Under the pieces are notes generated by a model. That model made no database searches, was not told where the DNA came from, and saw only the letters and a program-made list of their open reading frames with translations. A stretch of DNA of 64,000 nucleotides from an uncultured Spirochaetota bacterium (lineage in GTDB: Bacteria; Spirochaetota; Spirochaetia; SZUA-6; Fen-1364), in contig CAWGAA010000003.1 in NCBI GenBank assembly GCA_963820525.1, positions 992,001 to 1,056,000 on the forward strand, read 5' to 3'. The position numbers were made by a program, and so were the translations under genes. Positions 13,957 to 26,998 of this stretch are shown piece after piece; positions within the stretch are counted from its first letter, which is position 1, and the number at the start of each line of letters is the position of its first letter.

Positions 13957-14766
13957 CTACGCTCCGGGCAGTCCCTTGATGGTGTCGCGCTCGATGTCCT
14001 TGAAGTACTTTACCGTGCTCACCTTGAGATCGCCCAGTGAGTCTTCGTCGCAGACGATTATCGTCTTTTTATGGAGCTGGAGCATGGAGACGGTCCACTG
14101 CTGGTTGACCCCCTCCTCCACAAGCTTCTGCAGGGCCCGGGCCTTTGCGTGCCCGCTTACGATGATGAGCGCCTCATCCGCGTCCATCACGGTGCCGACG
14201 CCTACCGTGAGGGCCATCCGGGGGACGGCTTTCATGTCGCCGCCGAAGAAACGGGAGTTGGCCATCCTGGTGTCGTCCGTGAGAGTCTTGACCCGCGTGC
14301 GGGAGCTCAGGGATGAGTACGGCTCGTTGAAGGCGATGTGGCCATCGGGTCCCACGCCGCCGAGAAAAAGCCGGATGCCGCCCAGGGATTCGATCTTCTT
14401 CTCGTAGCGCTCGCACTCGCCCTCCAGGTCCGCGGCCAGGCCGTTGAGGATGTTGATGTTTTCACCGGGGATATCCACGTGGCTGAAGAGGTGCTGCCGC
14501 ATGAAGAAGTGAAAGCTCTGAGGATGATCCTCGGCAAGGCCGACGTACTCGTCCATGTTGAAGGTGACCACGTTGGCAAAGGAGACCCTGCCCTGCCTAT
14601 TCAGCTCCACCAGCTTCTGGTAGGTCCCCAGCGGGGAAGATCCCGTGGGAAGCCCCAGCACGAACGGCCTGTCTCGTGTGGGCTTGAATGCGTTGATCTC
14701 GGCGCAGACGTAGTGGGCCACCCATGCGCTCAGAGCCGCGTAATCGTCATGAATGATGACTCTCAT
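13957..14766 (-). CDS. nagB: Glucosamine-6-phosphate deaminase
   Basis: [48 protein letters not shown]. Confidence 0.97.
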
Positions 14767-14899
14767 GAATGCCCTCCCCTATTCCTTGATTCCCCCCGAT
14801 GTTGATGGTTATGCTCTGCCGCGCCCTTGTCACAAGACGCACGTGCCAACCTTAAAATAAGGAGGATTGGGTTGGAAGCAAAGAAAAACGGAGGCGCAG

Positions 14900-15958
14900 T
14901 CAGCGCTCCGTCATCGGCTCCCTGCGTACGGATTGCCTTTCTACAAGCGATGGTGCGAATGTCTTCGCGAAAAGCGGCCGGCCGGCCGGCCCTCCGCCGG
15001 CGGATTCCGCGGTTTCCGGCCCCTCCATCTGGGCCAGGAGGAACTCCGCCATGGTCTTTCCCATCTCGAAGCAGGGCTGCATCACCGTGGTGAGGGGCGG
15101 GCCGAAGACGGCGGCGAGCTCGATATCGTCCACTCCGATAACGCTGAGATCTTCAGGGATGGAAATGCCCAGCTCCGCTGCCGCCTTATAGACTCCCGCG
15201 GCTACCAGGTCGTTGTAGCACAAGAAGGCAGTGGCTTGAGGCGCGGCTCCTGCCCTCCCCGGGAACAGCCCGGCCGCCGCCTGCCGGCCATCCTTCATGG
15301 TGGCGCCGGCCGGCACGATCATCTCTTCCGTGAAATGCAGTCCGGCCTGGATCACGGCGTCCTTGAAACCCGCGGCCCTCTGTTCCGCGGCGCCCGAGGA
15401 GACGGGACCGCGGAGGTGGACAATCCGTGTATGACCCATCTCCAACAAGTATTCGGCGGCAAGCCTTCCCGCCCCCCGCTCCGAGAACTCAGCCCGGGAA
15501 GTCTCCATGCCCGGGAGGCTTCCCAAGGTAACGAGCGGAGTGCCGCGGGCGATGAGGCTCCAGATGTGCCCAAGGTCGATGCCGATCTGCTGGGGAGTGA
15601 TGATGATCCCGTCAACCTGGTAGCTCAAGGCGGCCCCTACAGCCTGAACCTCCCGCTCATGGTCGTCCTCGGTGCTGAGAAGGAGCGTGCTGTACTTTTT
15701 TGGCGCGAGCACGCTGTTGATCCCCTCCACGATCCTGGAGTTGAAGGGGTTCATGATGTCCTTGAGGATGAGGGCCACGAGGTGGGTGGACCTCCTTCCA
15801 AGCGCGCGGGCAAGCCTGTTCGGCTGATAGTGGTAGCGCGAGACGACCTCCAGCACTTTCCTGCGCGTCGGCTCGGAAACCCAGGGTTTGTCCGAAAGCA
15901 CGGCATGTACCGTGGATCGGGAAGTGCCGCTCAGCCTTGCAATCTCTTCCATCGTCAT
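14900..15958 (-). CDS. LacI-family transcriptional regulator
   Basis: MTMEEIARLSGTSRSTVHAVL HTH; YQPNRLARAL; IPEDLSVIGVDD; LVERQS; start trimmed to ATG 15958. Confidence 0.93.
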   Translation of the reverse strand: MTMEEIARLSGTSRSTVHAVLSDKPWVSEPTRRKVLEVVSRYHYQPNRLARALGRRSTHLVALILKDIMNPFNSRIVEGINSVLAPKKYSTLLLSTEDDHEREVQAVGAALSYQVDGIIITPQQIGIDLGHIWSLIARGTPLVTLGSLPGMETSRAEFSERGAGRLAAEYLLEMGHTRIVHLRGPVSSGAAEQRAAGFKDAVIQAGLHFTEEMIVPAGATMKDGRQAAAGLFPGRAGAAPQATAFLCYNDLVAAGVYKAAAELGISIPEDLSVIGVDDIELAAVFGPPLTTVMQPCFEMGKTMAEFLLAQMEGPETAESAGGGPAGRPLFAKTFAPSLVERQSVRREPMTER

Positions 15959-15963
15959 AGTTT

Positions 15964-15973
15964 TACACGTGTA
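15964..15973. promoter_or_regulatory. Putative LacI-family operator TACACGTGTA
   Basis: Perfect 10-bp palindrome with central CG, overlapping the predicted lacI transcription start. Confidence 0.55.
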
Positions 15974-16000
15974 GTATATCATTTTCCTTTTATTTGTCAA
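15973..16000 (-). promoter_or_regulatory. Sigma70 promoter of the LacI gene
   Basis: TTGACA-16 nt-TATACT with an extended TG. Confidence 0.65.
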
Positions 16001-16058
16001 TATTATTTCTTTCAATATAAATAATTATTCTATTTCCTGACTTTCTAACGATTTATTA

Positions 16059-16087
16059 TTGACATCGTGTATAATGGATGATATCAT
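16059..16087 (+). promoter_or_regulatory. Sigma70 promoter of the epimerase operon
   Basis: TTGACA-17 nt-TATCAT with an extended TG in an AT-rich spacer. Confidence 0.7.
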
Positions 16088-16110
16088 GGATTTGACTTAA
16101 GGAGTTTCAA

Positions 16111-17118
16111 ATGGAAGTGGAGAAAAACAAGCTAATCGTTGTCACGGGCGCCGGCGGCTTTATCGGGGGGTGCCTCGTTTCAGACCTCAGGCGCCAGGGC
16201 TTCAAACGCATACGCGCCGTTGACAGAAAGCCCCTGAACCAGTGGTACCAGGCTTTCGACGATGTTGAAAACCTCGTCCTCGACCTCAAGCTCCTGGAGA
16301 ATTGCACCACGGCGGCGCAGGGGGCATCCGAGATATATAACCTCGCGGCCGACATGGGAGGAATGGGCTTCATCGAGAAGAACAAGGCCCAGTGCATGCT
16401 CTCCGTGCTCATCAGCACGCATATGCTGGAAGCGGCACGGGTAGTCGGCGTGGAGCGGTTCTTCTACTCGTCCTCAGCCTGCGTGTACAATGCCGACAAA
16501 CAAAAAGAGGCCCATGTAACCGCCTTGAAGGAAGAGGACGCTTACCCCGCGCTTGCCGAAGACGGCTACGGCTGGGAGAAGCTGTTCAGCGAGAGGATGT
16601 GCCGCCACTTCCGCGAGGATTTCGGAATGGAAACCCGCGTGGCGCGCTTCCACAACGTGTACGGCCCCTACGGCACCTGGGACGGCGGAAGGGAGAAAGC
16701 GCCGGCCGCGCTCTGCCGCAAGGTAATCGACGCCAAGCACCGGAAAACCGGCCAGATCGAGATCTGGGGCGACGGCGAGCAGACACGGAGCTTCATGTTC
16801 ATTGACGACTGCGTGAAGGGCATCCAGCTCATCGCCCAGAGCGACATCCTGGAACCCATTAACCTGGGATCGAGCGAGCTTGTCTCAATCAATCACCTGG
16901 TGGACATCGTGGAGGAAGTGGCCGGGGTGAAGCTGAAAAGAGAATACGATCTCGACGCCCCCAAGGGCGTGCGGGGGCGGAACAGCGACAACACGGCCAT
17001 CAAGAAGCGGCTGAATTGGGAACCGAAGATCTCCCTGCGCGAGGGGATCGCGAAGACATACGCATGGATCGAGAAGCAGTACGCGGACCGGCTGGCCGGA
17101 AAGCGGACCGTGAGCTGA
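16111..17118 (+). CDS. NAD-dependent epimerase, GDP-mannose 3,5-epimerase-like
   Basis: TGAGGFIG; LAADMGGMGFI; YSSSACVY; YGWEK; RFHNVYGP.GTWDGGREKAPAALCRK; GVRGRNSDN. Confidence 0.88.
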   Translation: MEVEKNKLIVVTGAGGFIGGCLVSDLRRQGFKRIRAVDRKPLNQWYQAFDDVENLVLDLKLLENCTTAAQGASEIYNLAADMGGMGFIEKNKAQCMLSVLISTHMLEAARVVGVERFFYSSSACVYNADKQKEAHVTALKEEDAYPALAEDGYGWEKLFSERMCRHFREDFGMETRVARFHNVYGPYGTWDGGREKAPAALCRKVIDAKHRKTGQIEIWGDGEQTRSFMFIDDCVKGIQLIAQSDILEPINLGSSELVSINHLVDIVEEVAGVKLKREYDLDAPKGVRGRNSDNTAIKKRLNWEPKISLREGIAKTYAWIEKQYADRLAGKRTVS

Positions 17119-17134
17119 ACCGGAGCGCTTGGGC

Positions 17135-17920
17135 ATGTCGGACGTGATCGGAGCCATCCCCTATCGCCTCGCGCTCGCCGGCGGATGGATAGACCAGCCT
17201 TTCGTCTCCCGGCTCAACCCCGATCCGCCCGGCTCCATGGTCGTGGTGGCCGTTCAGCCCGATTTCAGGTGGATGGATCGCTGCGGCATGGCCACGAGCA
17301 CGCGGCAGGCGGCCTCGCGGCTCTGGAACGGCGCGCTGCCCGCCCGGGATCCCGCAGACCTGGTGCGCGAGCTGTACGCGGAGGAGAACAGGGGCAAGGC
17401 GGATCCCTCGGGATCCCAGGACATGGTCGGCCTCATCTACCCCGGCGTCAGCAGGCTGGATTTCGACGCATCCTCGGAAGGAGGCGTGTTCCCCGAGCAC
17501 ATCGAGTCCAACACGGACCCGGCCGTCGCCCGATGGATCGAGGAGGTCGTCCGGGTGTTGCCCATTGCCCCGCGTCCCGAGAACTACAGCCCGCTGGGAG
17601 AGAAGAACCTGGATCCCGGGTGGATCGGCATGCTCGGCAGAACCGGGAAGGACTGCTTCAAGGCCATCGTGGAACGCGACATGCGAGCCCTGGGCCAGTC
17701 CATGAACGAGTGCATGAGATGCTGGGAGGCCATCCTTCCCCAGACGGTGCGGCATCCTTCAATCACCGTGGACCTCGCTGGAATTCTCAAGCAGTACCAG
17801 GAGCGATACGCCGGGGCCATGTACTCCGGCTGCGGCGGCGGCTACCTCTATGTCGTCTCGGACCGGCCGGTTGCGGGCTCGTTCACCGTGCGCGTGCGCA
17901 CCTCTTCCGAATACCTCTAG
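17135..17920 (+). CDS. Divergent GHMP-superfamily sugar kinase-like protein
   Basis: PYRLALAGGWIDQP (motif I), DRCGMATS (degenerate motif II), SGSQD, YSGCGGGYL (motif III). Confidence 0.7.
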   Translation: MSDVIGAIPYRLALAGGWIDQPFVSRLNPDPPGSMVVVAVQPDFRWMDRCGMATSTRQAASRLWNGALPARDPADLVRELYAEENRGKADPSGSQDMVGLIYPGVSRLDFDASSEGGVFPEHIESNTDPAVARWIEEVVRVLPIAPRPENYSPLGEKNLDPGWIGMLGRTGKDCFKAIVERDMRALGQSMNECMRCWEAILPQTVRHPSITVDLAGILKQYQERYAGAMYSGCGGGYLYVVSDRPVAGSFTVRVRTSSEYL

Positions 17921-17922
17921 CC

Positions 17923-18735
17923 ATGCGGCGCGTCGTCGTCTGCGGAAGCTTCGACAACATACGCTCCGGCCGCGTCCGTCTCCTGCAGGAAGCCTCGCGC
18001 CTTGGAGAGGTTTCCGTCGCGCTCTGGTCCGACGAAACCGTACGAAGGATATCGGGAGCGGATCCCAAGTTTTCGGCGGATGAGCGGATGTACCTCATTG
18101 GCGCGCTCAGGTATGTTTCACATGTCTCGATTCACAACATGCCGAAAGGCCCTGATTCGCTTCCGCCGCTCGGGTTTCCCGCTCCGTCAATCTGGGTTGT
18201 CGATGCCAAGGAAGACTGCGCTGAAAAGCGGCACCAGGCCGCCTCCCGCGGCATCGAGTATATGGCTTTTGGGGAGAGGGAACTCGACGGTCTCCCTCTC
18301 GACGCGCCTGATCGCCGCGATGGACGGCGGAAAGTCCTGGTCACGGGCTGCTACGATTGGTTTCACTCCGGCCACGTACGCTTCTTCGAGGAAGTCTCCC
18401 GCCTGGGAGATCTCTCTGTGGTGGTGGGAAGCGACGCGAACGTGCGGATGCTCAAGGGGGAGGGTCATCCCCTGTTCTCCCAGGATGTGCGCCGATACAT
18501 GGCGGGCTCCGTGCGGTATGTCACCGAGGCACTCATCTCGACGGGACAGGGGTGGATGGACGCCGAGCCCGAGATCAGGCGGATCAGGCCCGATATATAC
18601 GCGGTCAACGAGGACGGCGACAAGCCGGAGAAACGTGCGTTCTGCGAGGCGAATGGGATCGAGTACGCGGTTCTGCGCCGCGTACCGCGAGCCGGGCTTC
18701 CCCGCAGGACCAGCACGGACCTTCGGGGGTTTTAG
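17923..18735 (+). CDS. Tandem HIGH-type nucleotidyltransferase (TagD/RfaE-II-like, two domains)
   Basis: Domain 1 VCGSFDNIRSGRVRLLQEA (degenerate); domain 2 VTGCYDWFHSGHVRFFEEV...RRTSTDLR; true start ATG 17923 lies within the 17185 ORF. Confidence 0.85.
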   Translation: MRRVVVCGSFDNIRSGRVRLLQEASRLGEVSVALWSDETVRRISGADPKFSADERMYLIGALRYVSHVSIHNMPKGPDSLPPLGFPAPSIWVVDAKEDCAEKRHQAASRGIEYMAFGERELDGLPLDAPDRRDGRRKVLVTGCYDWFHSGHVRFFEEVSRLGDLSVVVGSDANVRMLKGEGHPLFSQDVRRYMAGSVRYVTEALISTGQGWMDAEPEIRRIRPDIYAVNEDGDKPEKRAFCEANGIEYAVLRRVPRAGLPRRTSTDLRGF

Positions 18736-18810
18736 TCTCAGCGCGGCGCTGCGCGCGGCAGCATGCCGCGCCGAGAGGAGGGGCCGCCCCGAAGAATGCC
18801 GCGCGGCCCC

Positions 18811-19809
18811 TCATTCCACGGGCGCTTCGGCCACCGGGAAAAGAAGCTTCTGGTTTTCGGGCTGGAACATGTTCTGCCGGTTGATGTCTATCGAGCCGGT
18901 GTTTATATAGCGCGGAGACTTTTTCCCGTCGATGAGCTCGCGGGCAACCTTGATCCCCAGGTAGCCCATGTTGAAGGGCTTCTGGATGATGGTGTCTCTG
19001 ATGATTCCCTGCTCCACATACTTGAGCACCCGGAAAGTGTTGTCGAACCCGACGAAAAAGATCTTTGCCGCCTTGCCCGATTCGACGAGCGCCCGCGCGG
19101 CTCCCCGCGCCGTGGGTTCGTTCAACGCCACAATCCCGCGGAGATCCCTCGTGCGCGCGATGAGGATCTTGGCCTGCACGTAGGCCCGGGAAGCGTCCGA
19201 GTTGCTGTACAGGGTGTCGAGCAGCTTCACCTTCCCGTCCAGAAAGTCCCGGACTCCCGCTTCGCGGTCTATGGCGGTTGAGCTTCCCTTCACGTAGCTC
19301 ATGATCGCCACGGTGTCTCCCGGCTTCACGAAGCGCATGAGGGCGGAGCCGCACTTCTGGCCTCCCTCGTAGCTGTTCGTGCCGATCCGCACGTCCGGGT
19401 CGTCCGAGTTGATGAAGGAATCGATGCAGACCAGGGGGATGCCCCGCCGTTTGATCTCCCGGGCCGGGGGAATGAGCAGGTTGTAATCCGCGGCCGCGAG
19501 CACGATCGCGTCGGGCTTTTCCTCCATTGCCTGCTTCACCATTTCGATCTGCTCCGCCACGTCGGTTTCGCTTGCAGGACCCCTGATGGATACATCGATC
19601 GCGAAATCCTTGCCCGCCGACACGATGCCGTCGCGCACGCTGCCCCAGAAAGGGGAGCCCGTGTAGTCGATGGTCTTGAAGATAACGACGGCTTTCCTGG
19701 GCTGCTCGAGGCTGGGGCCGAAAAGATGGCTGCCCCTATACAGGAGGGTGAGCGCGAGCGCGGCGAGGAGGGCCGCCGTAAAGAAGACCAATACCGTGCG
19801 ATCCTTCAC
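18811..19809 (-). CDS. Sugar-binding protein (RbsB-like) associated with the two-component system
   Basis: TM anchor; FWGSVRDG, GPASETD, KPDAIVL, IGTNSYEGG, QKPFNMGYLG; GTGA overlap with the kinase. Confidence 0.9.
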   Translation of the reverse strand: MKDRTVLVFFTAALLAALALTLLYRGSHLFGPSLEQPRKAVVIFKTIDYTGSPFWGSVRDGIVSAGKDFAIDVSIRGPASETDVAEQIEMVKQAMEEKPDAIVLAAADYNLLIPPAREIKRRGIPLVCIDSFINSDDPDVRIGTNSYEGGQKCGSALMRFVKPGDTVAIMSYVKGSSTAIDREAGVRDFLDGKVKLLDTLYSNSDASRAYVQAKILIARTRDLRGIVALNEPTARGAARALVESGKAAKIFFVGFDNTFRVLKYVEQGIIRDTIIQKPFNMGYLGIKVARELIDGKKSPRYINTGSIDINRQNMFQPENQKLLFPVAEAPVE

Positions 19810-21560
19810 GGAGTCTCTCCTTCCGCGATGACGGGGATCCTGATGGTCGCCGTCGTGCCCATTCCCGGCGCGCTCTCGAACTGAACGCCGAACTCGGGAC
19901 CGAAATAAAGCCGGATCCTCTCCTGCACGTTGCGTACCCCAACGCCGCTGCTCTGGCTGGGCTCTATTTTTCCGCCCTGAAGCGCCTCCAGCTGCGCCGC
20001 CGGCATTCCCACCCCGTTGTCGCTTATCCTGATGACCATGGTCTCCCCATCCAGCTCGCCGATGATCCTGATCAGCCCCGGGCCTTCGCTGTTCTTGATC
20101 CCGTGGTAGATCGCGTTTTCCACCAGCGGCTGGATGAGGAGCTTCAGGATCTGGCGGTTGAACAGCTCCGGAGTGAAGGCGAGCTCGTACGAAAGCTTGT
20201 CCTTGTACCGCTCCTTCTGGATGGCCAGGTAGGTCTCGACGTACTCGATCTCGGTCCTCACGCTGATGGTCTCGCTGCCGCGGCTGAGGCCGAGGCGGAA
20301 GAACTTGGCAAGGGAGGAGGTCATGTCGATGGCGCGCTGGCTCTCGCCAAGCTCGATCATCCAAATGATCGAGTCGAGGATGTTGTAGAGGAAGTGGGGG
20401 TTGATCTGCGCCTGCAGGGCCCGAAGCTCGAGCTTCCGCTTCAGCTCCTGCTCCCTGCGGCTCTGTTCGATGAGGTCGCGGACCTTCTTGACCGCGATGT
20501 CGCAGTCCCGTGCGAGCTGGTAGACCTCGTTCGACGAGTTCACCGTGATGTCGATATCGAAGTTCCCGCTTTCCACGGCCTGCATGGAAAGGCGCAGCGA
20601 CTCGATGGGCCGGGAGATGCTTCTCGAAAGAAGAGAGGCGACGCCGATCGCCGCCACGAAGGCAAGGAGCGACAGGAGGAGGAAATAGTATTCAGCCTCG
20701 CGGCTGGCCCCGAAAAGCTCGTCCAGGTAGGAGACGGCGACCACCGTCCATCCCGTCTGTTCGGAGTTCACCGACGTGTACAGGATGGCCCTCCCATCCA
20801 CGACGGCGTTGAGGTAGCCCCCGTTCAGGGCCAGCACGTCTGCGATCCGCTCGGACTTCAGGTTCCCGTAGATGAGCTGCTGGCGGGGGTGATAGACGAT
20901 CTCGCCATTGCGGTTGAGGATGAAGACATAGCCGGACTTGCCCAGCCGGATGTCCCGGCACAGGCTCGCGATGATGTCGTAGTTCAGGTCCACCTGGATG
21001 ATGCCGATGCCCTCGGTTTCGGGGGTTTCCCGCATGTCGCGCACCAGGGAGATGACCCAGGGATAGCGGTTGTCGACGAGGTTTTCGACGTGGGCCGAGG
21101 AGACCGAGGGTCTGCCCGACGCCAATCCCGCCTCCAGCTCTTCGAAGCGCTCCCGGAAGCTCACCGTTGGGTTGAGCCTTCCGCCCGGCGCGGATGCGAT
21201 GGCCCTTCCGTCACGGGTGATGAGGAAGAGCGAATCGATGTCCCTGCGCACCGAACGGATGGCCTCGAAGGACTTGCCTATCGCTGCGCGAAGCTCGGGA
21301 GAGTCGGCGCCGGGGCTCGACATGAAAACACGGACATCCTCGTTGTTCACCGCCACGAGGGCGATGTCGTCCATGTACTTGATGTAGTTCTCGATGACCC
21401 TTTTCATCTGGTTGACGACCTGCGTCGTCGCCTCCTCGGCGTTCTGCACGAGGATCTTTCTGAGGTAATAGACCGAGAGTGCCCCCAGGAGGAGGATGGT
21501 GAAGATGATGAGGGCCGTGAAAGCCCTGATGAGGGTGTTCTGGATGCGGCGGATCTTCAT
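19806..21560 (-). CDS. YesM/LytS-family sensor histidine kinase (dCache-like, HAMP)
   Basis: ELRALQAQINPHFLYNILDSI; LLIQPLVENAIYHG; DNGVGM; GVGVRNVQERI. Confidence 0.93.
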   Translation of the reverse strand: MKIRRIQNTLIRAFTALIIFTILLLGALSVYYLRKILVQNAEEATTQVVNQMKRVIENYIKYMDDIALVAVNNEDVRVFMSSPGADSPELRAAIGKSFEAIRSVRRDIDSLFLITRDGRAIASAPGGRLNPTVSFRERFEELEAGLASGRPSVSSAHVENLVDNRYPWVISLVRDMRETPETEGIGIIQVDLNYDIIASLCRDIRLGKSGYVFILNRNGEIVYHPRQQLIYGNLKSERIADVLALNGGYLNAVVDGRAILYTSVNSEQTGWTVVAVSYLDELFGASREAEYYFLLLSLLAFVAAIGVASLLSRSISRPIESLRLSMQAVESGNFDIDITVNSSNEVYQLARDCDIAVKKVRDLIEQSRREQELKRKLELRALQAQINPHFLYNILDSIIWMIELGESQRAIDMTSSLAKFFRLGLSRGSETISVRTEIEYVETYLAIQKERYKDKLSYELAFTPELFNRQILKLLIQPLVENAIYHGIKNSEGPGLIRIIGELDGETMVIRISDNGVGMPAAQLEALQGGKIEPSQSSGVGVRNVQERIRLYFGPEFGVQFESAPGMGTTATIRIPVIAEGETP

Positions 21561-23167
21561 CTGTCGTCGAGCTTCCCGCGGTTCTGGTTCCTGAACTCGG
21601 AGGGCGTGATGCCCGCGTGCTTCTTGAACAGCGAGCTGAAGTAGCGGGCGTCGGGATACCCGCACGCCTCGGCGATTTCATAGGTCATGAGGTCCGTCGT
21701 CGCCAGGAGCTCCCTGGCCCTCGCGAGACGGAACTCGGTGAGGTAATCCACGAAGCTCTTGTTCAGGTGGCGCTTCACGAGCTTCGACAGGTAGCTCGCG
21801 CTGATGGAGAGGCTGTCGGCGACTTTCTGGATGTGCAGATCCTCCTCCGCGTAGTGTCGCGCGAGGTACTCCTTGAAGTCCAGGACCTTCCACTGGGGGA
21901 GGGGGAGGTTGCGGGAGGCGAGCGCCGTCGCTGCGAAAACGGAAAGCCGGGAAAGGACGGCCTGCACCTCCTCCGCCGTGCGCAGGCGTTCCACGGTCCT
22001 GTAGTAATCGATGCCGAGCTCGCGGGCGACGGTTGCCGAGGAAACCCCAAGGCCGCCGAAGTCGTCGAGGATGGTCGCGAACAGGTCGTCAATTTCGTGC
22101 CGAATCCTCTGCGGGGAGAGGCCCGCGCCGCGCATGGCGCGGAAAAAGGCGTCCGCCTGCGCCCCGGTCTCCGCGGCGTCACCCGACAGCAGGGAACGGC
22201 AGAGCTTTTCGCTTCGCGATCTGAGCTCCGCGATGCAGGCGGGATCGTCCTCCCTGGCTTGCGTGTAACGGAACGCCTTTCCCGCTTCCGTGACCAGGCG
22301 GCAGGCCAGAGCGGCCGTGGCCTCATCATAGGTCCGGGAGGCGTCGACCCAGCTCTCGTAAGCCCTGCCGATCCCGACCGTCGTCTCCGGCCCGGAGGCG
22401 GCGACGGCTTTTACGCCGACGATCTCCGCCTGTCTGTCGCAGCTCTGTGCGTCTGCTTCGAAGACGAGGACGGCCTCGCGGTCCTCCCGCGGTCGGAAAA
22501 CGAGGGCCCTGCGGGCCGAGCCGGCGGCCTGGGCCAGGGGCTGCGGGAGGAGACCATCAGCGGCCCCCGCCCCCTCGCCGGCCTGTCCTTCGGGAATGGA
22601 CGGGGGCCTCTCGGCGACTACTGCTACGCACGCGAGGCCCTTCGGGGAGAAGCCGAACAGGTCACGGAACTTCTCTTCGGAAATGCCCGGCGTTCCCGAG
22701 ACGATGTCCAGGAGGCTGCGCACTTTGAGAAGGCTTTCTCCCCTGTCGGCCCGCTCCTTGAGCATTGTTTCGTCCTCGCGGGAGCGCCGGTCGGCGTCGA
22801 GCTTCGCCTTGAGCTTGACCACGAGGTTGCCGAGCTCACGCGAGGTCACCGGCTTCAGCACGTAGTCGAAGACCTTCGTCCTGATCGCCTTCTGGGCGTA
22901 TTCGAACTCGTCATAGCCGGAGAGGATAACGACAAGGGTGTCGGGGCAGTTTTCGGCCGCGTACGCCGCCACCGCCAGCCCGTCGACGTGGGGCATGTAG
23001 ATGTCGGTCATCACCACGTCGGGATGAAGGCTGTCGATGGCTTCGATTGCCTCCCTGCCGTCGCGGCAGGGCTCCAGGAACTCGAAGCCGAGGCTCTTCC
23101 AGTCGATCTTGTCGGTGAATCCGCGGCGGACGATCTCTTCGTCGTCCACCATCAAAAACCTGTACAT
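21557..23167 (-). CDS. YesN-family response regulator (REC + AraC)
   Basis: MYRFLMVDDEE, TDIYMPHVDG, SGYDEFEYAQKA; C-terminal AraC EIAEACGYPDARYFSSLFKK. Confidence 0.93.
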   Translation of the reverse strand: MYRFLMVDDEEIVRRGFTDKIDWKSLGFEFLEPCRDGREAIEAIDSLHPDVVMTDIYMPHVDGLAVAAYAAENCPDTLVVILSGYDEFEYAQKAIRTKVFDYVLKPVTSRELGNLVVKLKAKLDADRRSREDETMLKERADRGESLLKVRSLLDIVSGTPGISEEKFRDLFGFSPKGLACVAVVAERPPSIPEGQAGEGAGAADGLLPQPLAQAAGSARRALVFRPREDREAVLVFEADAQSCDRQAEIVGVKAVAASGPETTVGIGRAYESWVDASRTYDEATAALACRLVTEAGKAFRYTQAREDDPACIAELRSRSEKLCRSLLSGDAAETGAQADAFFRAMRGAGLSPQRIRHEIDDLFATILDDFGGLGVSSATVARELGIDYYRTVERLRTAEEVQAVLSRLSVFAATALASRNLPLPQWKVLDFKEYLARHYAEEDLHIQKVADSLSISASYLSKLVKRHLNKSFVDYLTEFRLARARELLATTDLMTYEIAEACGYPDARYFSSLFKKHAGITPSEFRNQNRGKLDDR

Positions 23168-23273
23168 TACTGGTGCCGTCCGCTGTGCGTATGTCATCTT
23201 CGCCCGCAATGAACGAGCCATAATAAACCCTCTTGCTCAAGAGATGAAAGCGGCTGACGTGCCCCCTTCCCCG

Positions 23274-23377: not shown

Positions 23378-24337
23378 TTAATACAGGACGTTCTTCGCTG
23401 CGGTGCTGTCGATGTTGTCCTTGGTCACGATAATGAACCCGGTGTCGACCTTTGCCGGGACCTTCTTCTTCGCAATAGCGGCGTCATACGCGGTTTTGAC
23501 CCCGAGATAGCCCATATTGTAGGAGCTCTGCACGGCGATTGCCTGCAAGGTGCCGTCCTTGATGAAGTTCTGCAGGGGCGCATTGCCGTCAAAGCCGATC
23601 GCAACGATCTTTCCGGCGAGCCCTGCCTGCGCGATGGCACGACCCATTCCAACCGCGGTAGGCTCATTGGCGCCAAAGATACCCACGAGGTCCGGGTTCG
23701 CGGCAAGGACGTTGGTGGTCTGGTTGAGCGCGGTGGGCATGTCGGCGTTGGAGTACTGGGTGGTCACGATCTTAAGGTGCGAGTTCTTTGCGATGTAGTC
23801 CTTAAATCCGCCCACGCGGCCGATCTCTGAACCGACGCCTGCAACATAGGACATGACCGCGATATTTCCCGAGTCGCTGCCGGTCGCCGCCTTCACGCGA
23901 TCGATAAGCTCCTTTGCGCATGCCCTTCCGGCCGCGTCATTGTCCGTGGCCAGGAAGGAGACGTAGTTCGACGGATCTCCGGTCAGAAGGGAGTCGATGA
24001 CGACGACCGGGATTCCGGCAGCCTTCGCCTTCTTCACCACGGGGACCAGGGCGGTTACGTCCGAGGGGGCGAGGACAATGCCCTTGACGCCGCGGTCGAT
24101 CGCGCTTTCAACGATGTTGATCTCCTCGGTGATATTGCTCTCGGATTGGGGCCCGAGGAACGTGACCGAGAGCTTCGGGCTCAGCGCCTTGAGCTCTTTC
24201 TGGGCATTGAAACACCCGGTCTGCACATTCTGCCAGAAACTGGAGTTGCCCGTCTTGACGATGACCGCGATCTCCTGGGCCGAAAGCGCCCCGGCGACGA
24301 AGGCCAGCATCATGAGGATGATGAGCAGCTTTTTCAT
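23378..24337 (-). CDS. Monosaccharide ABC transporter substrate-binding protein
   Basis: Signal peptide MKKLLII; IVKTGNSSFWQNV; ATDNDAAG; QSSYNMGYLG; GGAGG RBS. Confidence 0.93.
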   Translation of the reverse strand: MKKLLIILMMLAFVAGALSAQEIAVIVKTGNSSFWQNVQTGCFNAQKELKALSPKLSVTFLGPQSESNITEEINIVESAIDRGVKGIVLAPSDVTALVPVVKKAKAAGIPVVVIDSLLTGDPSNYVSFLATDNDAAGRACAKELIDRVKAATGSDSGNIAVMSYVAGVGSEIGRVGGFKDYIAKNSHLKIVTTQYSNADMPTALNQTTNVLAANPDLVGIFGANEPTAVGMGRAIAQAGLAGKIVAIGFDGNAPLQNFIKDGTLQAIAVQSSYNMGYLGVKTAYDAAIAKKKVPAKVDTGFIIVTKDNIDSTAAKNVLY

Positions 24338-24439
24338 AAAAACCTCCTTCACGAATATCACAGTCCATACGGACTGCGTTTCCCGATGGTATGATGTCCT
24401 GCGCGGACTTCGCCGCTGCGGGACGACAACTCCCTGCCG

Positions 24440-25444
24440 CTACTTCCTCCTGATCTGATCGAAGTATACGGCGAAAATGACGACGAGCCCGATAACGATC
24501 TGCTGCATGAAGTAATTCGCCCCCTGCATCGTGAGACCGACCGTGAGTATGCCGATGATAAAAGACCCGATCACCGTCCCTCCCACCGTGCCCACGCCCC
24601 CCATGAAGCTCGTACCGCCAATGATGGCGGCGGCAATTGCGTTCAGCTCATAGCCCACTGCGCTGTTGGGCTGGGAGGTGACCATCCGCGAGGCGAGGAT
24701 GATGCCGACCAGGCCCGCGAGCAAGGCGCAGAAGATGTAGTTGACGATTTTGACCTGGCCGACCTTGATCCCGGAAAGCCGCGCCGCCTCTTCATTCGAC
24801 CCGACGGCGTAGGTGTACCTCCCGATCCGCGTTTTCTTGAGGATGAAGTGGCAGACGAGGGCTACCACGATCATGATGAGCACCGGGTAGGGTATGCCGG
24901 GGAATTGGGGCCCGATCCCGAAGACGGTGTTGTTGCCCAGCGCGCCGAAGGATTCCGGCGCCGGCTTCGCGTTGGCGTTCGTTATCGTAAGGGCGACCCC
25001 GCGAACGACATCCATCATGCCGAGCGTCGCGATGAAGGGAGGCAGCTTCATCCTGGTGATCAGAAGGCCGTTGACGAGGCCGCAGGCGACTCCGACGAGC
25101 AGACCGATGAGCATGCTGGCCCAGATCGGGACTCCGGCAATCGATGCCATCACGGCGACCGTACCGGTGAGGGCGATGACCGATCCGATGGAGAGATCGA
25201 TGCCGGCCGTGATGATGGTGAAGGTCACGCCGATGCCCATGAGGGTTGTCGTGCTTGTCTGCAGGGCGAGGGAAAGGATGCTTCGCATGGTGAAGAAATT
25301 CTTCGCCGTTATCGAGAAAACGGCAAACAGCACGACAACGGCGCCGAAGGTGATGAACTTGTCCAGGGCCAGCTGGGAACGCCTCTGCACGCCTCCGACC
25401 TCCAGGGCGCGCTCTTCGACGGGTTTCGGTGCGAAATCATTCAT
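24440..25444 (-). CDS. Monosaccharide ABC permease (RbsC-like)
   Basis: GIDLSIGS, LPPFIATLG, GSNEEAARLSGI, YELNAIAAAIIGG. Confidence 0.95.
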   Translation of the reverse strand: MNDFAPKPVEERALEVGGVQRRSQLALDKFITFGAVVVLFAVFSITAKNFFTMRSILSLALQTSTTTLMGIGVTFTIITAGIDLSIGSVIALTGTVAVMASIAGVPIWASMLIGLLVGVACGLVNGLLITRMKLPPFIATLGMMDVVRGVALTITNANAKPAPESFGALGNNTVFGIGPQFPGIPYPVLIMIVVALVCHFILKKTRIGRYTYAVGSNEEAARLSGIKVGQVKIVNYIFCALLAGLVGIILASRMVTSQPNSAVGYELNAIAAAIIGGTSFMGGVGTVGGTVIGSFIIGILTVGLTMQGANYFMQQIVIGLVVIFAVYFDQIRRK

Positions 25445-25459
25445 GACTGTGCCTCTCGT

Positions 25460-26998
25460 TCAGCGGGTTTTGGTGCGGTGCTCGGACCCGCTGCCTGTCG
25501 CCGTGCCAACCCCGGCGGCGAAGTTCAGGATCTCCTCCTGGGTGGTGTCTTTTGTGACCAGCGTCGCTTTGAGACTTCCTTCATGGAGCACCAGGACGCG
25601 GTCCGTCATGCCCAGGATCTCGGAAAGCTCTGCGGAGATCATGATGACCCCGACCCCCCCCCGGGCCAGGCGCTCGATGAGCTCGTAGATCGCGTACTTG
25701 GTGCCGACGTCGATGCCGCGGGTCGGCTCGTCGAAGATTAAAATCTTCGAGTTGCAGAAGAGCCACTTGGCGACGACCACTTTCTGTTGGTTGCCGCCGG
25801 AGAGGTTGTTGACCACCTGGGTGAGACTCGGAGTCTTTATCGTGAGCTCGTCCACGTACTTCTGGCAGGCTTCCAACTCCCGGCTGCGGGAGATCACGCC
25901 GAACCTCTGCGAGACGTGCTTCATGTTGGCCATGGTGACGTTCTCTGCCAGCTGCATCCTCACGGCCAGCCCTTCCAGCTTCCTGTTCTCCGAGAGGTAC
26001 GCAATCCCCGCCTGTATGGAATCCGAGGGCGAGGCCAGGGACAGCCTGCGGCCGTTCATGATCACTTCCCCCGAATCGATGTGATCCGCCCCGAAGATGG
26101 CCCTGGCCAGCTCCGATCTGCCCGCGCCCATGAGGCCCGCAATGCCCAGGATCTCATTCTTGTACAGGTCGAAGGAGATGCCATGAAGGATGCCCTTGCG
26201 GACGATGTTTCGGACCTCGAGGATCTTCTCGCCGGTGGGGATGTTGCGCTTGGGTGGGAACTTGTTCTCCAGCTTGCGTCCCACCATCCGGCTCACGATC
26301 TCCTCAATGCTGATCGCGTTGTACTGGTCGGTGCTGACGTGGTGGCCGTCTCGAAAGATGGATATCCGATCTACGATGTGCTTCAGCTCTTCCAGGCGAT
26401 GTGAGATGTAGATGATTGCCACCCCATGGTCGCGCAGCGTGTGAATGACGTTGAAAAGCTCGTCTATCTCGGATTCCGGGAGCGCGCTGGTCGGTTCGTC
26501 CATGATGAGGACTTCCGACTCGAAGGAGAGGGATTTCGCGATCTCCACCATCTGCTGCTTGGAAATGGGAAGCCGGTTAAGCGTTACGGTGGGATCGATA
26601 TGGAGATTGAGCCGCTCGAGGATAGCCACCGCATCCACGTTCATCTTCTTTTCATTGAGGGTCCCCAACCTCGTCAAGGGTTCCCTGCCGATGAAGATGT
26701 TGGCGGCCACCGAGAGATGGGGAATGAGGTTGAGCTCCTGGTAGATGATGGCGATGCCGGCGTCGCGGGCCTGCGTGGAGTCCTGAAACCGGACCTGCTT
26801 GCCCTTATACGTGATCACACCCTCGTCGGCCTGGTAATCTCCGCAGAGAATCCTCATGAGGGTCGATTTGCCCGCCCCGTTTTCGCCGACCAGGGCGTGG
26901 ACCTCGCCCTTTCGCAGGTCAAACGATACGCGGTCCAGCGCCTTCACTCCGGGAAAGCTCTTGGAAACGTTCTCTACTTCTAGGATGACCTCGGGCAT
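25460..26998 (-). CDS. Monosaccharide ABC ATP-binding protein (RbsA-like)
   Basis: GENGAGKSTL, MDEPTSAL, LSGGNQQKV, FDEPTRGIDVG. Confidence 0.96.
   Translation of the reverse strand: MPEVILEVENVSKSFPGVKALDRVSFDLRKGEVHALVGENGAGKSTLMRILCGDYQADEGVITYKGKQVRFQDSTQARDAGIAIIYQELNLIPHLSVAANIFIGREPLTRLGTLNEKKMNVDAVAILERLNLHIDPTVTLNRLPISKQQMVEIAKSLSFESEVLIMDEPTSALPESEIDELFNVIHTLRDHGVAIIYISHRLEELKHIVDRISIFRDGHHVSTDQYNAISIEEIVSRMVGRKLENKFPPKRNIPTGEKILEVRNIVRKGILHGISFDLYKNEILGIAGLMGAGRSELARAIFGADHIDSGEVIMNGRRLSLASPSDSIQAGIAYLSENRKLEGLAVRMQLAENVTMANMKHVSQRFGVISRSRELEACQKYVDELTIKTPSLTQVVNNLSGGNQQKVVVAKWLFCNSKILIFDEPTRGIDVGTKYAIYELIERLARGGVGVIMISAELSEILGMTDRVLVLHEGSLKATLVTKDTTQEEILNFAAGVGTATGSGSEHRTKTR

Follow-up and report, generated by a model that had tools for sequence, protein, structure and literature searches.

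The locus described here, from a wetland spirochaete and part of a window of 64,000 nucleotides (the whole stretch of DNA analysed), raises the question of what a cell would do with an epimerase, a kinase and a nucleotidyltransferase encoded together opposite a LacI gene: activate a sugar for glycans, or assimilate one. The gene content and gene order, the folds, the conserved catalytic and sugar-binding residues, the neighbours and the gene fusions, all of them observed, point with a probability of roughly 0.6 to a Leloir-like assimilation route, of the pyrophosphorylase or 'Isselbacher' type, for a hexose with the shape of L-fucose, most likely L-galactose. Import, activation and epimerisation of an L-hexose in the catabolic direction had been proposed in the initial annotation; the support that this reading receives here is comparative, every computational test proposed with it having come out favourably.

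Layout and control region

The epimerase, kinase and nucleotidyltransferase operon opposite a LacI gene was found with every element previously described:

14900..15958, minus strand: LacI-family regulator gene, divergent from the three-gene operon
15959..16110: control region of 152 bp, 25% G+C, between the LacI gene and the operon
16111..17118, plus strand: GDP-mannose 3,5-epimerase (GME) homologue, 335 aa, first gene of the operon
17135..17920, plus strand: Kin, a minimal GHMP-fold kinase, 261 aa, second gene
17923..18735, plus strand: NT2, a two-domain cytidylyltransferase-fold protein, 270 aa, third gene

The operon genes are tightly packed, and two starts had to be corrected: that of Kin is the ATG at 17135, with GGAG ten bases upstream and an identical database protein of 261 aa, and that of NT2, earlier set at 17185, is the ATG at 17923, two bases past the Kin stop. 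The LacI reading frame covers 14900-16015 on the opposite strand, with M20 (15958) as the likely start, given that the Pfam LacI HTH spans residues 21-66 (Peripla_BP_3 and Peripla_BP_1 being further domains); the protein remains under all NCBIfam equivalog cut-offs, RbsR being the best (187.7 bits vs 382).

A sigma-70-type scan confirmed the near-consensus operon promoter, TTGACA-17-TATCAT (plus strand, 16059-16087), and identified TTGACA-16-TATACT on the LacI side (minus strand, 16000-15973), each with 11 of 12 consensus matches; promoter-like sites in 14700-19000 numbered 4, vs 1.0 ± 1.0 in shuffles. Also within the control region are three perfect 10-bp palindromes, TACACGTGTA at 15964-15973, AATAATTATT at 16020-16029 and ATGATATCAT at 16078-16087, the last covering the -10 of the operon promoter (shuffle mean 0.33; three or more in 0.54% of 5000 shuffles). 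The palindromes of the LacI operator claimed earlier are thus present, while the operator role is that of a candidate, for TACACGTGTA and ATGATATCAT. The window LacI shares just 30-34% identity with LacI genes at related loci, and close relatives carry a XylR-like regulator in its place, LacI not being the usual regulator of the operon. The NagB gene, next after LacI here, occurs at none of the 80 related loci, which counts against L-galactose assimilation; the target of LacI may therefore be nagB no less than the operon.

The three enzymes and their relatives

The epimerase is an SDR protein that matches Arabidopsis GME best among PDB entries (2c59, E 3.7e-99; 8sg0 at 2.8e-98), and its assignment as GME-type held in the alignment to 2c59, where S143, C145, Y174, K178, N203, K217, R243 and R306, the eight catalytic residues whose roles in plant GME are listed in a review (PMC8787198), are all conserved.

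Kin has no Pfam match at E ≤ 0.01, and hence none to a Pfam GHMP model; its sole direct profile match is a weak one to NCBIfam FKP (E 0.0019), and its homologues, more than 7000, are without exception named 'hypothetical'. The GHMP fold proposed earlier is nevertheless recovered by the AF2 model (pLDDT 94.7), for which the top Foldseek matches are all GHMP kinases, and by the family profile, which places FKP, the bifunctional L-fucokinase/GDP-L-fucose pyrophosphorylase of Bacteroides fragilis (5yys, 9iip, 9iit), first in the PDB (9iip 2.1e-14, 5yys 3e-13) through its fucokinase domain, followed by heptose kinases. In the family profile alignment, Kin R13, W20, D22, G95, Q97 and D98 correspond to FKP R592, W599, D601, G759, Q761 and D762, in columns invariant or at least 90% conserved among 37 sequences. 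The FKP study (PMC11982464) describes these residues as binding fucose through its hydroxyls at C2, C3 and C4 and as stacking on C4-C6, with D762 as the general base, and gives L-galactose and D-arabinose as further substrates, L-fucose being preferred ~100-fold over L-galactose; the shared residues therefore cannot separate the two sugars. Kin is predicted to be an L-galactose/L-fucose-type β-1-kinase of an unnamed GHMP family. It differs from FKP in its length (261 aa vs ~420 for FKP-CTD) and in its partners: NT2 is unrelated to the FKP pyrophosphorylase domain, and FKP is a salvage enzyme without an epimerase partner, although kinase and transferase are also fused among Kin relatives, as the initial annotation had suggested might be found (a cytidylyltransferase domain in 9 of the 12 N-terminally extended distant relatives scanned).

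NT2 matches PF01467 (CTP_transf_like) in two stretches (52.6 bits vs a cut-off of 21) and falls under every NCBIfam equivalog cut-off, including that of its best profile, rfaE_dom_II (83 bits), which is also the top match of the C-terminal domain. The 'tandem HIGH' motifs reported earlier are half right: the HxGH of the C-terminal domain is intact and conserved (HSGH), whereas the N-terminal one is degenerate, RSGR here and RSRH in the consensus of a 30-sequence family alignment. The family also has invariant columns. The AF2 model (pLDDT 91.7) matches human CTP:phosphoethanolamine cytidylyltransferase (ECT, 3elb/4xsv) over its full length (TMq 0.76-0.77; profile vs PDB 3.3e-22), in agreement with an ECT-like double cytidylyltransferase fold, and shares with ECT the two-domain pseudo-dimer. 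HldC and RfaE domain II, heptose-1-P adenylyltransferases, act on a sugar-1-phosphate; NT2 differs from ECT and from these in having its degenerate domain at the N-terminus and in its expected substrate and nucleotide. The solved relatives use CTP (ECT, GCT, CCT) or ATP (HldC/RfaE type), which counts against GTP, and we know of no guanylyltransferase of this fold; NT2 is predicted to be a β-L-Gal-1-P nucleotidylyltransferase, possibly a guanylyltransferase.

Neighbours here and at related loci

Beyond the operon, Pfam matches bear out the sugar sensor and the monosaccharide ABC importer already noted there:

18811..19800, minus strand: membrane-anchored sugar-binding-protein-like sensor (start approximate; Peripla_BP_4 at 1.1e-53)
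19806..21665, minus strand: dCache/HAMP/His_kinase sensor kinase (start approximate; Pfam)
21557..23221, minus strand: response regulator with AraC-type output domain (start approximate; Response_reg and HTH_18)
23378..24361, minus strand: CUT2-type monosaccharide ABC substrate-binding protein (Peripla_BP_4 at 9.4e-59)
24440..25444, minus strand: ABC permease (BPD_transp_2)
25460..26998, minus strand: double ABC ATPase (ABC_tran, two stretches)

Copies of the sensor binding protein 71-73% identical to it adjoin the same operon in relatives, and the sensor kinase has 72-76% identity to its counterparts at related loci. Beside the trio, copies of the ABC binding protein with 75-97% identity occur at 8 of 80 loci, some of them from Anaerolineales, and 5 of 7 same-family relatives have one as well; 4 of the 7 relatives carry the trio and this importer co-directionally in one block (in L096 as GME-Kin without NT2). 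At two loci from Anaerolineales, L006 and L077, FucU comes after the binding-protein gene. The closest solved structure of this binding protein is 4wut (5e-100), which a preprint (10.64898/2026.07.18.739369) places among PDB entries containing D-fucose, not an L-sugar; this counts against L-sugar import.

The order GME-Kin-NT2 is conserved across the 80 related loci surveyed, from at least 8 phyla. Where the flank sufficed, GME lies immediately upstream of Kin at 58 of 75 loci and NT2 immediately downstream at 50 of 71; the absence of GME from the remaining 17 and of an adjoining NT2 from the other 21 count against the assimilation reading. Three loci without NT2 (L040, L041, L069) have an FKP-N-type fucose-1-P guanylyltransferase ahead of GME-Kin. 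The recurrent neighbours are LacI-, AraC- or XylR-type sugar regulators (34/80), fucose-type genes (23/80; GH29 α-L-fucosidases in 14, FucU in 6 at 192 vs a cut-off of 141, FucP in 4 at 443 bits vs 280, FucI-like genes in 3), importers (12/80), among them the same ABC importer, and mannose-phosphate genes (15/80). At least one of these markers is present at 52 of 80 loci and none at 28, the latter counting against assimilation. A ManC-type (GDP-mannose pyrophosphorylase) gene occurs at 15 loci, in 12 of them within ~100 bases after NT2 on the same strand; a phosphomannomutase gene comes next after ManC in L031 and L034, and in L059 a gene between NT2 and ManC encodes a type I phosphomannose isomerase.

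In this genome the only ManC gene (C3:701841-702920) adjoins a fused phosphomannomutase-isomerase. Its product shares 62.5% identity with the ManC linked to the operon at a verrucomicrobial locus; among 300 genomes sampled from the same phylum as this one, no ManC exceeds 40%. The genome also encodes a canonical FKP (987 aa), separate from the operon, and FucI, which means that enzymes for L-fucose are present already. A search of the genome for GH29 with the one query used gave no match, which counts against the assimilation reading.

Direction, substrate and the proposed route

PMI, PMM, ManC and GME make up the plant route to GDP-L-Gal, so gene content alone leaves the direction unfixed. 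It is accordingly conceivable, if rather unlikely, that the operon and ManA/B/C supply an activated L-sugar for glycans, GDP-L-galactose (or GDP-L-gulose) being made de novo through GME while Kin and NT2 salvage L-galactose or L-fucose, in parallel to Bacteroides FKP, for glycosyltransferases encoded elsewhere. The exact biosynthetic order of plants is in its favour, the fucosidases and FucP fit salvage equally well, the one characterised bacterial GME, from Methylacidiphilum, has a glycosyltransferase as its neighbour and was given a role in LPS synthesis (PMC6678494), and the distant Kin relatives P0193 and P0223 are fused to glycosyltransferases (GT2, DXD-type), which counts against assimilation. 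Nevertheless, neither of two batches of further neighbour ORFs, of 107 and 119 (226 together), contained any glycosyltransferase family more than once, and, as first noted, the window shows no glycosyltransferase or flippase nearby, with 25 ORFs from 1023 to 41843 scanned; related trios lie not in LPS/capsule clusters but beside regulators of catabolic type, fucose-type, importer and mannose genes, with importers co-directional with the operon. GME-Kin is the most conserved pair, yet salvage to GDP-L-Gal needs no epimerase, and NT2 and ManC in one operon fit one nucleotidyltransferase on each side of it.

The remaining alternatives concern the substrate. That it is L-fucose (or D-arabinose), with Kin and NT2 as a non-orthologous FKP making GDP-L-fucose and the GME homologue leading on to a different GDP-sugar of the 6-deoxy kind, for example GDP-D-rhamnose, agrees with the conserved fucose-binding residues, with the preference of FKP for L-fucose and with neighbours named for fucose (GH29, FucP, FucU, FucI); it is improbable in view of ManC, PMM and PMI in the operons of related loci, where they would have no role for a 6-deoxy sugar, of the canonical FKP and FucI, and of the lack of an onward GDP-D-rhamnose route encoded nearby. 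Very improbable is a CDP- or ADP-sugar made by NT2 from an imported sugar shaped like D-fucose, D-galactose or L-arabinose, to which the epimerase has drifted: the cytidylyl- and adenylyltransferases related to NT2 and the D-fucose reported for 4wut speak for it, but the GME signature residues are all conserved in the epimerase, Kin aligns to β-L-fucose kinase and not GalK, GDP-forming enzymes (ManC, FKP-N type) accompany the operon, and the two Anaerolineales loci have FucU after the binding-protein gene.

We therefore favour L-galactose assimilation, inferring both the catabolic direction and the choice of L-galactose over L-fucose. The free sugar would be imported by the adjoining CUT2 ABC importer, induced via its own binding-protein/kinase/regulator sensor; Kin would place a phosphate on C1, giving β-L-Gal-1-P, to which the C-terminal domain of NT2 would join a nucleotide, probably from GTP; the GME homologue would epimerise the resulting GDP-L-Gal at C3 and C5 to GDP-D-mannose, and a dedicated GDP-mannose pyrophosphorylase, in this genome the ManC at C3:701841-702920, would free Man-1-P and regenerate GTP, Man-1-P passing through Man-6-P to Fru-6-P. 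LacI, acting at the AT-rich control region, would keep the operon off as long as neither the sugar nor an intermediate is present.

No published description of an L-galactose to GDP-mannose route or operon was found in a literature search. In Bacteroides vulgatus free L-galactose is oxidised, through L-galactonate to tagaturonate and KDG. The lgu genes of Luteolibacter LG18 serve growth on the substrate proposed here by an oxidation of free L-galactose that passes through L-galactonate and then tagaturonate to KDG, and the paper on them nowhere mentions GDP (PMC12632266). The plant Smirnoff-Wheeler pathway (PMI, PMM, GDP-mannose pyrophosphorylase, GME) has the same intermediates and a closely related GME but runs oppositely, from fructose-6-P to L-galactose and ascorbate, and cuts GDP-L-Gal with a HIT-family phosphorylase, without a kinase or a cytidylyltransferase-fold enzyme. 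With the Leloir/Isselbacher pathways (GalM, GalK, GalT or UDP-sugar pyrophosphorylase, GalE) no operon enzyme is orthologous, and NT2 is unrelated to GalT or the usual sugar-1-P nucleotidyltransferases; UDP would be replaced by GDP, and the 4-epimerisation of D-galactose by a 3,5-double epimerisation of L-galactose to D-mannose. The logic would nonetheless be common to both, with a mutarotase, a GHMP anomeric kinase, nucleotidyl transfer, an SDR epimerase and the release of a common hexose-1-phosphate, and the cell may convert L-galactose to Man-1-P, by way of β-L-Gal-1-P, GDP-L-Gal and GDP-Man, at the same net cost of one ATP.

Genes and control region of the operon

The three close-packed genes for the GME homologue, the minimal GHMP-fold sugar kinase (Kin) and the two-domain cytidylyltransferase-fold protein (NT2), together with their neighbours, are laid out as follows.

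13957-14766 (-): nagB (TIGR00502, 400 bits against a cut-off of 237)
14900-15958 (-): LacI-family regulator (PF00356 at 8.6e-11, PF13377 at 3.3e-33)
16111-17118 (+): GME homologue, first gene of the trio
17135-17920 (+): Kin, 261 aa, without Pfam match
17923-18735 (+): NT2, 270 aa, double cytidylyltransferase fold
18811-23221 (-): sugar-binding-protein-like sensor, dCache histidine kinase and AraC-output response regulator, convergent with the trio
beyond the sensor genes, region ending at 26998: CUT2-type ABC importer (binding protein, permease, double ATPase)

Kin begins 16 bases on from the GME stop (17118) with a GGAG ahead of it, and NT2 follows two bases past the Kin stop. In the LacI protein, both the N-terminal HTH and the periplasmic-binding-protein-like effector domain that LacI/GalR repressors require are detected with Pfam. 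The 152-bp spacer between LacI and GME, with 25% G+C in a surrounding region of about 61%, holds two divergent promoter-like sites of 11/12 matches each in the promoter scan, in agreement with the near-consensus operon promoter of the initial annotation, and three perfect 10-bp palindromes against 0.33 expected; one of them, ATGATATCAT, overlaps the operon promoter at its -10 element. The palindromes of LacI-linked Chloroflexota loci bear no resemblance to those of the window (e.g., ATGGTAACGGTACCAT at related locus L005 and TTGTTATCGGTAACAA at L017), and this comparison gives the candidate operator no support. The terminator scan returned no intrinsic terminator 3' of NT2; a GC-rich 8-bp inverted repeat lies past the gene (18780-18787/18803-18810). 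A scan of 25 ORFs between 1023 and 41843 of the window turned up no glycosyltransferase, which bears out the earlier claim that none lies nearby.

The three-part sugar sensor beside the importer, which we take to resemble the XylFII-LytS-YesN type (sensor, dCache/His_kinase, receiver-AraC), is kept with the operon in the window's family. Farther off, 1023-4550 (-) encodes a protein of 1175 aa that carries seven K319L-like PKD repeats alongside further Ig-like domains, and then comes a 702-aa TPR protein.

Predicted functions of the three enzymes

Enzymes of the GME family interconvert GDP-D-mannose and GDP-L-galactose and are specific for the guanine nucleotide. The epimerase of the window matches Arabidopsis GME structures at E 3.7e-99, against 7.5e-27 for the runner-up family, GDP-fucose synthase. 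In the alignment to 2c59 (chain numbering offset +2), the Ser/Tyr/Lys triad S143, Y174 and K178 is identical, the C145/K217 acid-base pair and the acidifying R306 are kept, with SSSACVY, GGREKAPAA and VRGRNSDN aligned to the plant motifs, and so are the diphosphate-binding R243 and the conserved N203. The available portions of a GME review (PMC8787198) name these eight residues as GME-defining, the Cys/Lys/Arg set separating GME from GalE and from the epimerase-reductase GMER (His, Lys), and assign bacterial GME to LPS and antibiotic synthesis; they list no guanine-contact residues. The GME-like assignment was therefore upheld, and by residue criteria the protein is a predicted GDP-mannose 3,5-epimerase (extended SDR, CEP1). 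A heptose-nucleotide pathway (HddA/HldE-like), raised by rfaE_dom_II and heptokinase matches, was rejected, as the epimerase is GME-type (heptose_epim 76 bits, cut-off 275) and the neighbours are fucose/mannose-type.

Canonical GHMP motifs comprise a glycine-rich phosphate loop and a C-terminal GGG. Neither GHMP_kinases_N nor GHMP_kinases_C of Pfam matches the window Kin at E<=0.01, the latter being seen only in distant fused relatives among 12 scanned (P0245, 1.3e-6; P0213, 3.7e-7), and the direct match of Kin is a weak one to the FKP C-terminus. The AF2 model (pLDDT 94.7, from a 37-sequence alignment) has a two-domain GHMP fold as predicted, and its Foldseek matches are all GHMP-family proteins, namely WcbL heptokinase, mevalonate kinase, the FKP fucokinase domain, an HddA-type kinase and galactokinases (E 1.7e-8 to 5e-6, TMq 0.56-0.66), and mevalonate diphosphate decarboxylases, so that the earlier description as a divergent GHMP kinase holds for the modelled fold while the Pfam GHMP models fail to match. 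Homologues are numerous (of 7999 candidates scored in a word-index search, 7190 reach E<=0.001; an exhaustive search of 50%-identity representatives gives 676 at that threshold and 112 at E<=1e-30), and the 120 listed, 68-100% identical, carry no Pfam domain and are unnamed or called 'hypothetical protein'.

The Kin family profile finds FKP first among structures (9iip, 2.1e-14; 5yys, 3e-13) and heptose kinase 3k85 next (1.2e-7). In the profile alignment to 5yys, Kin R13, W20, D22, Q23, G95, Q97 and D98 correspond to FKP R592, W599, D601, T602, G759, Q761 and D762, six of these seven sugar-contact or catalytic residues being kept (T602 becomes Q23); across 37 Kin sequences, D22, G95 and D98 never vary, and R13, W20 and Q97 reach at least 90% conservation. 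A variant phosphate loop, RCGMATSTR, contains the invariant G53 and R59, and SGCGGGY (G234, G236-238; at least 90% conserved) aligns to FKP GAGGGGY. According to the accessible text of PMC11982464, the C2-C4 hydroxyls of beta-L-fucose-1-P are bound by FKP D601, T602, Q761 and D762, and W599 stacks against C4-C6; D762 serves as general base and R592 as transition-state stabiliser, and the enzyme also takes L-galactose and D-arabinose and rejects D-mannose and D-glucose phosphates. Since the FKP sugar-binding columns are kept across the family, Kin is best read as a predicted minimal anomeric kinase for an L-fuco/L-galacto-configured sugar. The Fucose_pyrophosphorylase domain of Pfam is absent from both Kin and NT2.

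NT2 matches PF01467 in two stretches (52.6 bits, gathering score 21), and its model (pLDDT 91.7) superposes over the whole length on human ECT (TMq 0.76-0.77) and by single domains on RfaE-like, HldC, Fom1 and GCT structures, with which the profile search agrees. H148, G150 and H151 of the C-domain motif FDWFHSGH are invariant in 28-30 family members, and the N-domain motif is degenerate (RSGR in the window, RSRH in the family consensus). The 'tandem HIGH' motif described at first is consequently intact in the C-domain and fails HxGH in the N-domain, so one active site is expected. As to the donor nucleotide, gene context argues for GTP and homology for CTP or ATP. The trio would work like the Leloir pathway (GalK, GalT, GalE), but it is not a member, because orthology fails at each step: the family profile places Kin closer to FKP than to GalK, NT2 is of another fold than GalT (Foldseek), and the epimerase scores 75 bits against a galE equivalog cut-off of 262.

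Related loci and the genome of the window

A one-genome-per-species scan gave at least 582 confirmed relatives, and the 80 loci kept span Spirochaetota, Chloroflexota, Acidobacteriota, Planctomycetota, Verrucomicrobiota, Lentisphaerae, Hydrogenedentota and a gammaproteobacterial MAG. By tblastn, 58 of the 75 loci whose flank reaches 1.1 kb or more have GME immediately upstream of Kin, and 50 of the 71 with 1.2 kb or more have NT2 immediately downstream. Neighbouring ORFs (at least 90 aa, up to 6.5 kb from Kin, selected greedily on GC3-weighted length) were clustered, and recurrent clusters were named by Pfam and NCBIfam and recounted by tblastn with one representative each.

Table. Recurrent neighbours of Kin in the 80 related loci
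ManC-type GDP-mannose pyrophosphorylase: 15/80; in 12 after NT2, within ~100 bases
LacI-type regulator: 15/80
GH29 alpha-L-fucosidase: 14/80
AraC-type regulator: 12/80
XylR-like regulator: 9/80
ABC binding protein of the window, at least 60% identity: 8/80
FucU: 6/80 (192 bits vs 141; RbsD just 38 vs 93)
FucP: 4/80 (443 bits vs 280)
FucI-like: 3/80
FKP-N-type fucose pyrophosphorylase: 3/80 (L040, L041, L069), separate gene

At least one marker neighbour occurs in 52 of the 80 loci and none in 28. A phosphomannomutase follows ManC in L031 and L034, and a class I phosphomannose isomerase stands between NT2 and ManC in L059. The three loci with an FKP-type guanylyltransferase (L040, L041, L069) belong to the 21 without NT2, which looks like transferase displacement and points to GDP. 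Among 226 of the 273 further ORFs (at least 150 aa, within 4.5 kb; Pfam, two batches, the 47 in L068-L080 left out), no glycosyltransferase family has two or more members within either batch, the commonest families being MFS_1 (4) and PGM_PMM (3). The neighbourhood survey suggested in the initial annotation thus returned regulators (34/80, all types combined), GH29 (14/80) and ManC (15/80), and no glycosyltransferase family recurrent within either batch scanned.

Variant arrangements were also observed. In four Thermoguttaceae loci (L058, L063, L065, L073), Kin-NT2 without adjacent GME comes after GH43 and DUF480 genes, in some with a cytidylate-kinase-like gene before Kin-NT2. An RmlD-like reductase (RmlD_sub_bind) adjoins the GME or NT2 gene in L049 (5634-6491), L060 and L080, and may act on a 4-keto GDP-sugar intermediate. 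In L036 (3409-9641; Chloroflexia), two paralogous systems lie in tandem, beginning with a LacI gene, followed by a 386-aa cytidylyltransferase-Kin fusion with 30% identity to Kin, another GME-like gene (45%) and the standard GME-Kin-NT2; they may serve two different sugars.

Kin stands behind an N-terminal extension in many of the 150 representatives listed. The kinase-transferase fusion that had been sought was found in nine of the 12 extended relatives scanned, which carry a cytidylyltransferase domain and suggest that kinase and transferase act together; two others have glycosyltransferase domains and one a weak GT-like match. Four fused forms (P0183, P0245, P0193, P0223) are distant Kin relatives, the architectures being L-rhamnose mutarotase or PNP_UDP_1 phosphorylase with cytidylyltransferase and Kin (one of the nine each), GT2 with Kin, and DXD-type glycosyltransferase with Kin. 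The wider Kin superfamily is predicted to serve biosynthesis too.

In the genome of the window the trio is single-copy. The only ManC (contig C3, 701841-702920) lies 290 kb off, convergent with a single ORF of 1006 aa (C3:698019-701039, +) that joins PGM_PMM domains I-III to a type I phosphomannose isomerase; we know of no described fusion of phosphomannomutase with phosphomannose isomerase. This ManC shares 62.5% identity with the operon-linked one at the verrucomicrobial locus L032, whereas the ManC proteins found at E<=1e-40 in 216 of 301 sampled genomes of the phylum are at best only 39-40% identical to it, which marks it as the operon-linked type. A canonical FKP-like protein of 987 aa (contig C1, 3128600-3131563, +; Fucose_pyrophosphorylase and GHMP_kinases_N), with a UbiA prenyltransferase gene next, is also encoded, so that, counting Kin, the genome would hold two unrelated fucose-type kinase systems; a strong FucI is present as well, and one GH29 query found no match in this genome.

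Kin occurs in 2 of the 301 sampled genomes of the phylum, the second copy being a 37%-identical fused form; within the window's family, 17 of 18 further genomes carry it. Its identity is 64-74% inside the family and 57-73% across phyla, a flatness that, judged from these sequences, fits a hard constraint floor or repeated transfer. Four of seven family relatives share, in one direction, a XylR-like regulator, GME-Kin-NT2, ATPase, permease, binding protein, regulator, kinase and sensor, although one of them, L096, has GME-Kin without NT2; in a fifth, L092, the importer genes are arranged otherwise. By this order, the window appears to be a rearranged version with LacI and nagB in the place of the regulator. 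LacI and nagB share a strand, with nagB 133 bases downstream; NagB was ruled out as a system component, being present in 0/80 related loci (tblastn), and the LacI-nagB pair accordingly looks like a local insertion replacing the usual XylR-like regulator. Near-identical DNA is present in wetland and freshwater-sediment metagenomes (six runs with at least half of the sampled words).

Probable L-galactose assimilation and its alternatives

In the proposed route, a fucose-shaped sugar would be imported, phosphorylated at C1 and nucleotidylated; the nucleotide sugar would be 3,5-epimerised and the product passed to GDP-mannose pyrophosphorylase, phosphomannomutase and isomerase. At equilibrium GME favours GDP-mannose, and FucP of E. 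coli also carries L-galactose. Of L-galactose and L-fucose, only the former would yield GDP-D-mannose usable downstream, which points to L-galactose as the substrate, and the net cost would be one ATP because GTP and PPi are recycled. On these sequence-based grounds, assimilation of L-galactose via a GDP-sugar into mannose phosphate is probable (about 0.6).

Several observations nevertheless count against this reading. The plant route to GDP-L-galactose uses the same gene set in the opposite direction, and the sole characterised bacterial GME adjoins a glycosyltransferase, as stated in the available part of PMC6678494; both would suit a trio that supplies a GDP-L-sugar, which is unlikely given that glycosyltransferase families are not recurrent within either batch of the 226 neighbour ORFs. 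L-Fucose, which FKP prefers according to the accessible text of PMC11982464, is an improbable substrate, as it would give a 6-deoxy product that the pyrophosphorylase, phosphomannomutase and isomerase cannot use. Another nucleotide or sugar appears less probable still, although NT2's relatives use CTP or ATP, and 4wut, the solved structure closest to the binding protein (5e-100), is among the few PDB entries with D-fucose in the part of a preprint available to us (10.64898/2026.07.18.739369).

Beyond L-galactose assimilation in the window itself, and at slightly less than even odds, the trio may form a widespread cassette, shared by horizontal transfer, that would let members of at least eight phyla grow on L-galactose released from plant, algal or invertebrate glycans; in it the 'vitamin C' epimerase would be reversed, two uncharacterised families would act (a 260-aa GHMP anomeric kinase and the first HIGH-fold sugar-1-phosphate guanylyltransferase) and its own GDP-mannose pyrophosphorylase would recover GTP. 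The full-text literature searched, which covers few subscription journals, holds no bacterial kinase/nucleotidyltransferase/GME route for L-galactose; the L-galactose catabolism of Luteolibacter LG18 is oxidative, and the accessible portion of its description does not mention GDP (PMC12632266). GDP-L-galactose-type L-sugar nucleotides are costly and scarcely available, according to the part at hand of a 2019 paper (PMC6678494), and the trio enzymes, if the reading is true, would offer a way to produce GDP-L-galactose and related L-sugar nucleotides. L-Galactose assimilation by the trio would then be a third and mechanistically different route for this sugar, the known ones being oxidative, would place a GDP-mannose 3,5-epimerase in assimilation instead of biosynthesis, and would assign functions to a two-domain nucleotidyltransferase family and to a kinase-like one with more than 7000 database entries; it would also explain the fate of fucosidase-released L-galactose in many polysaccharide degraders of soil, peat and freshwater.
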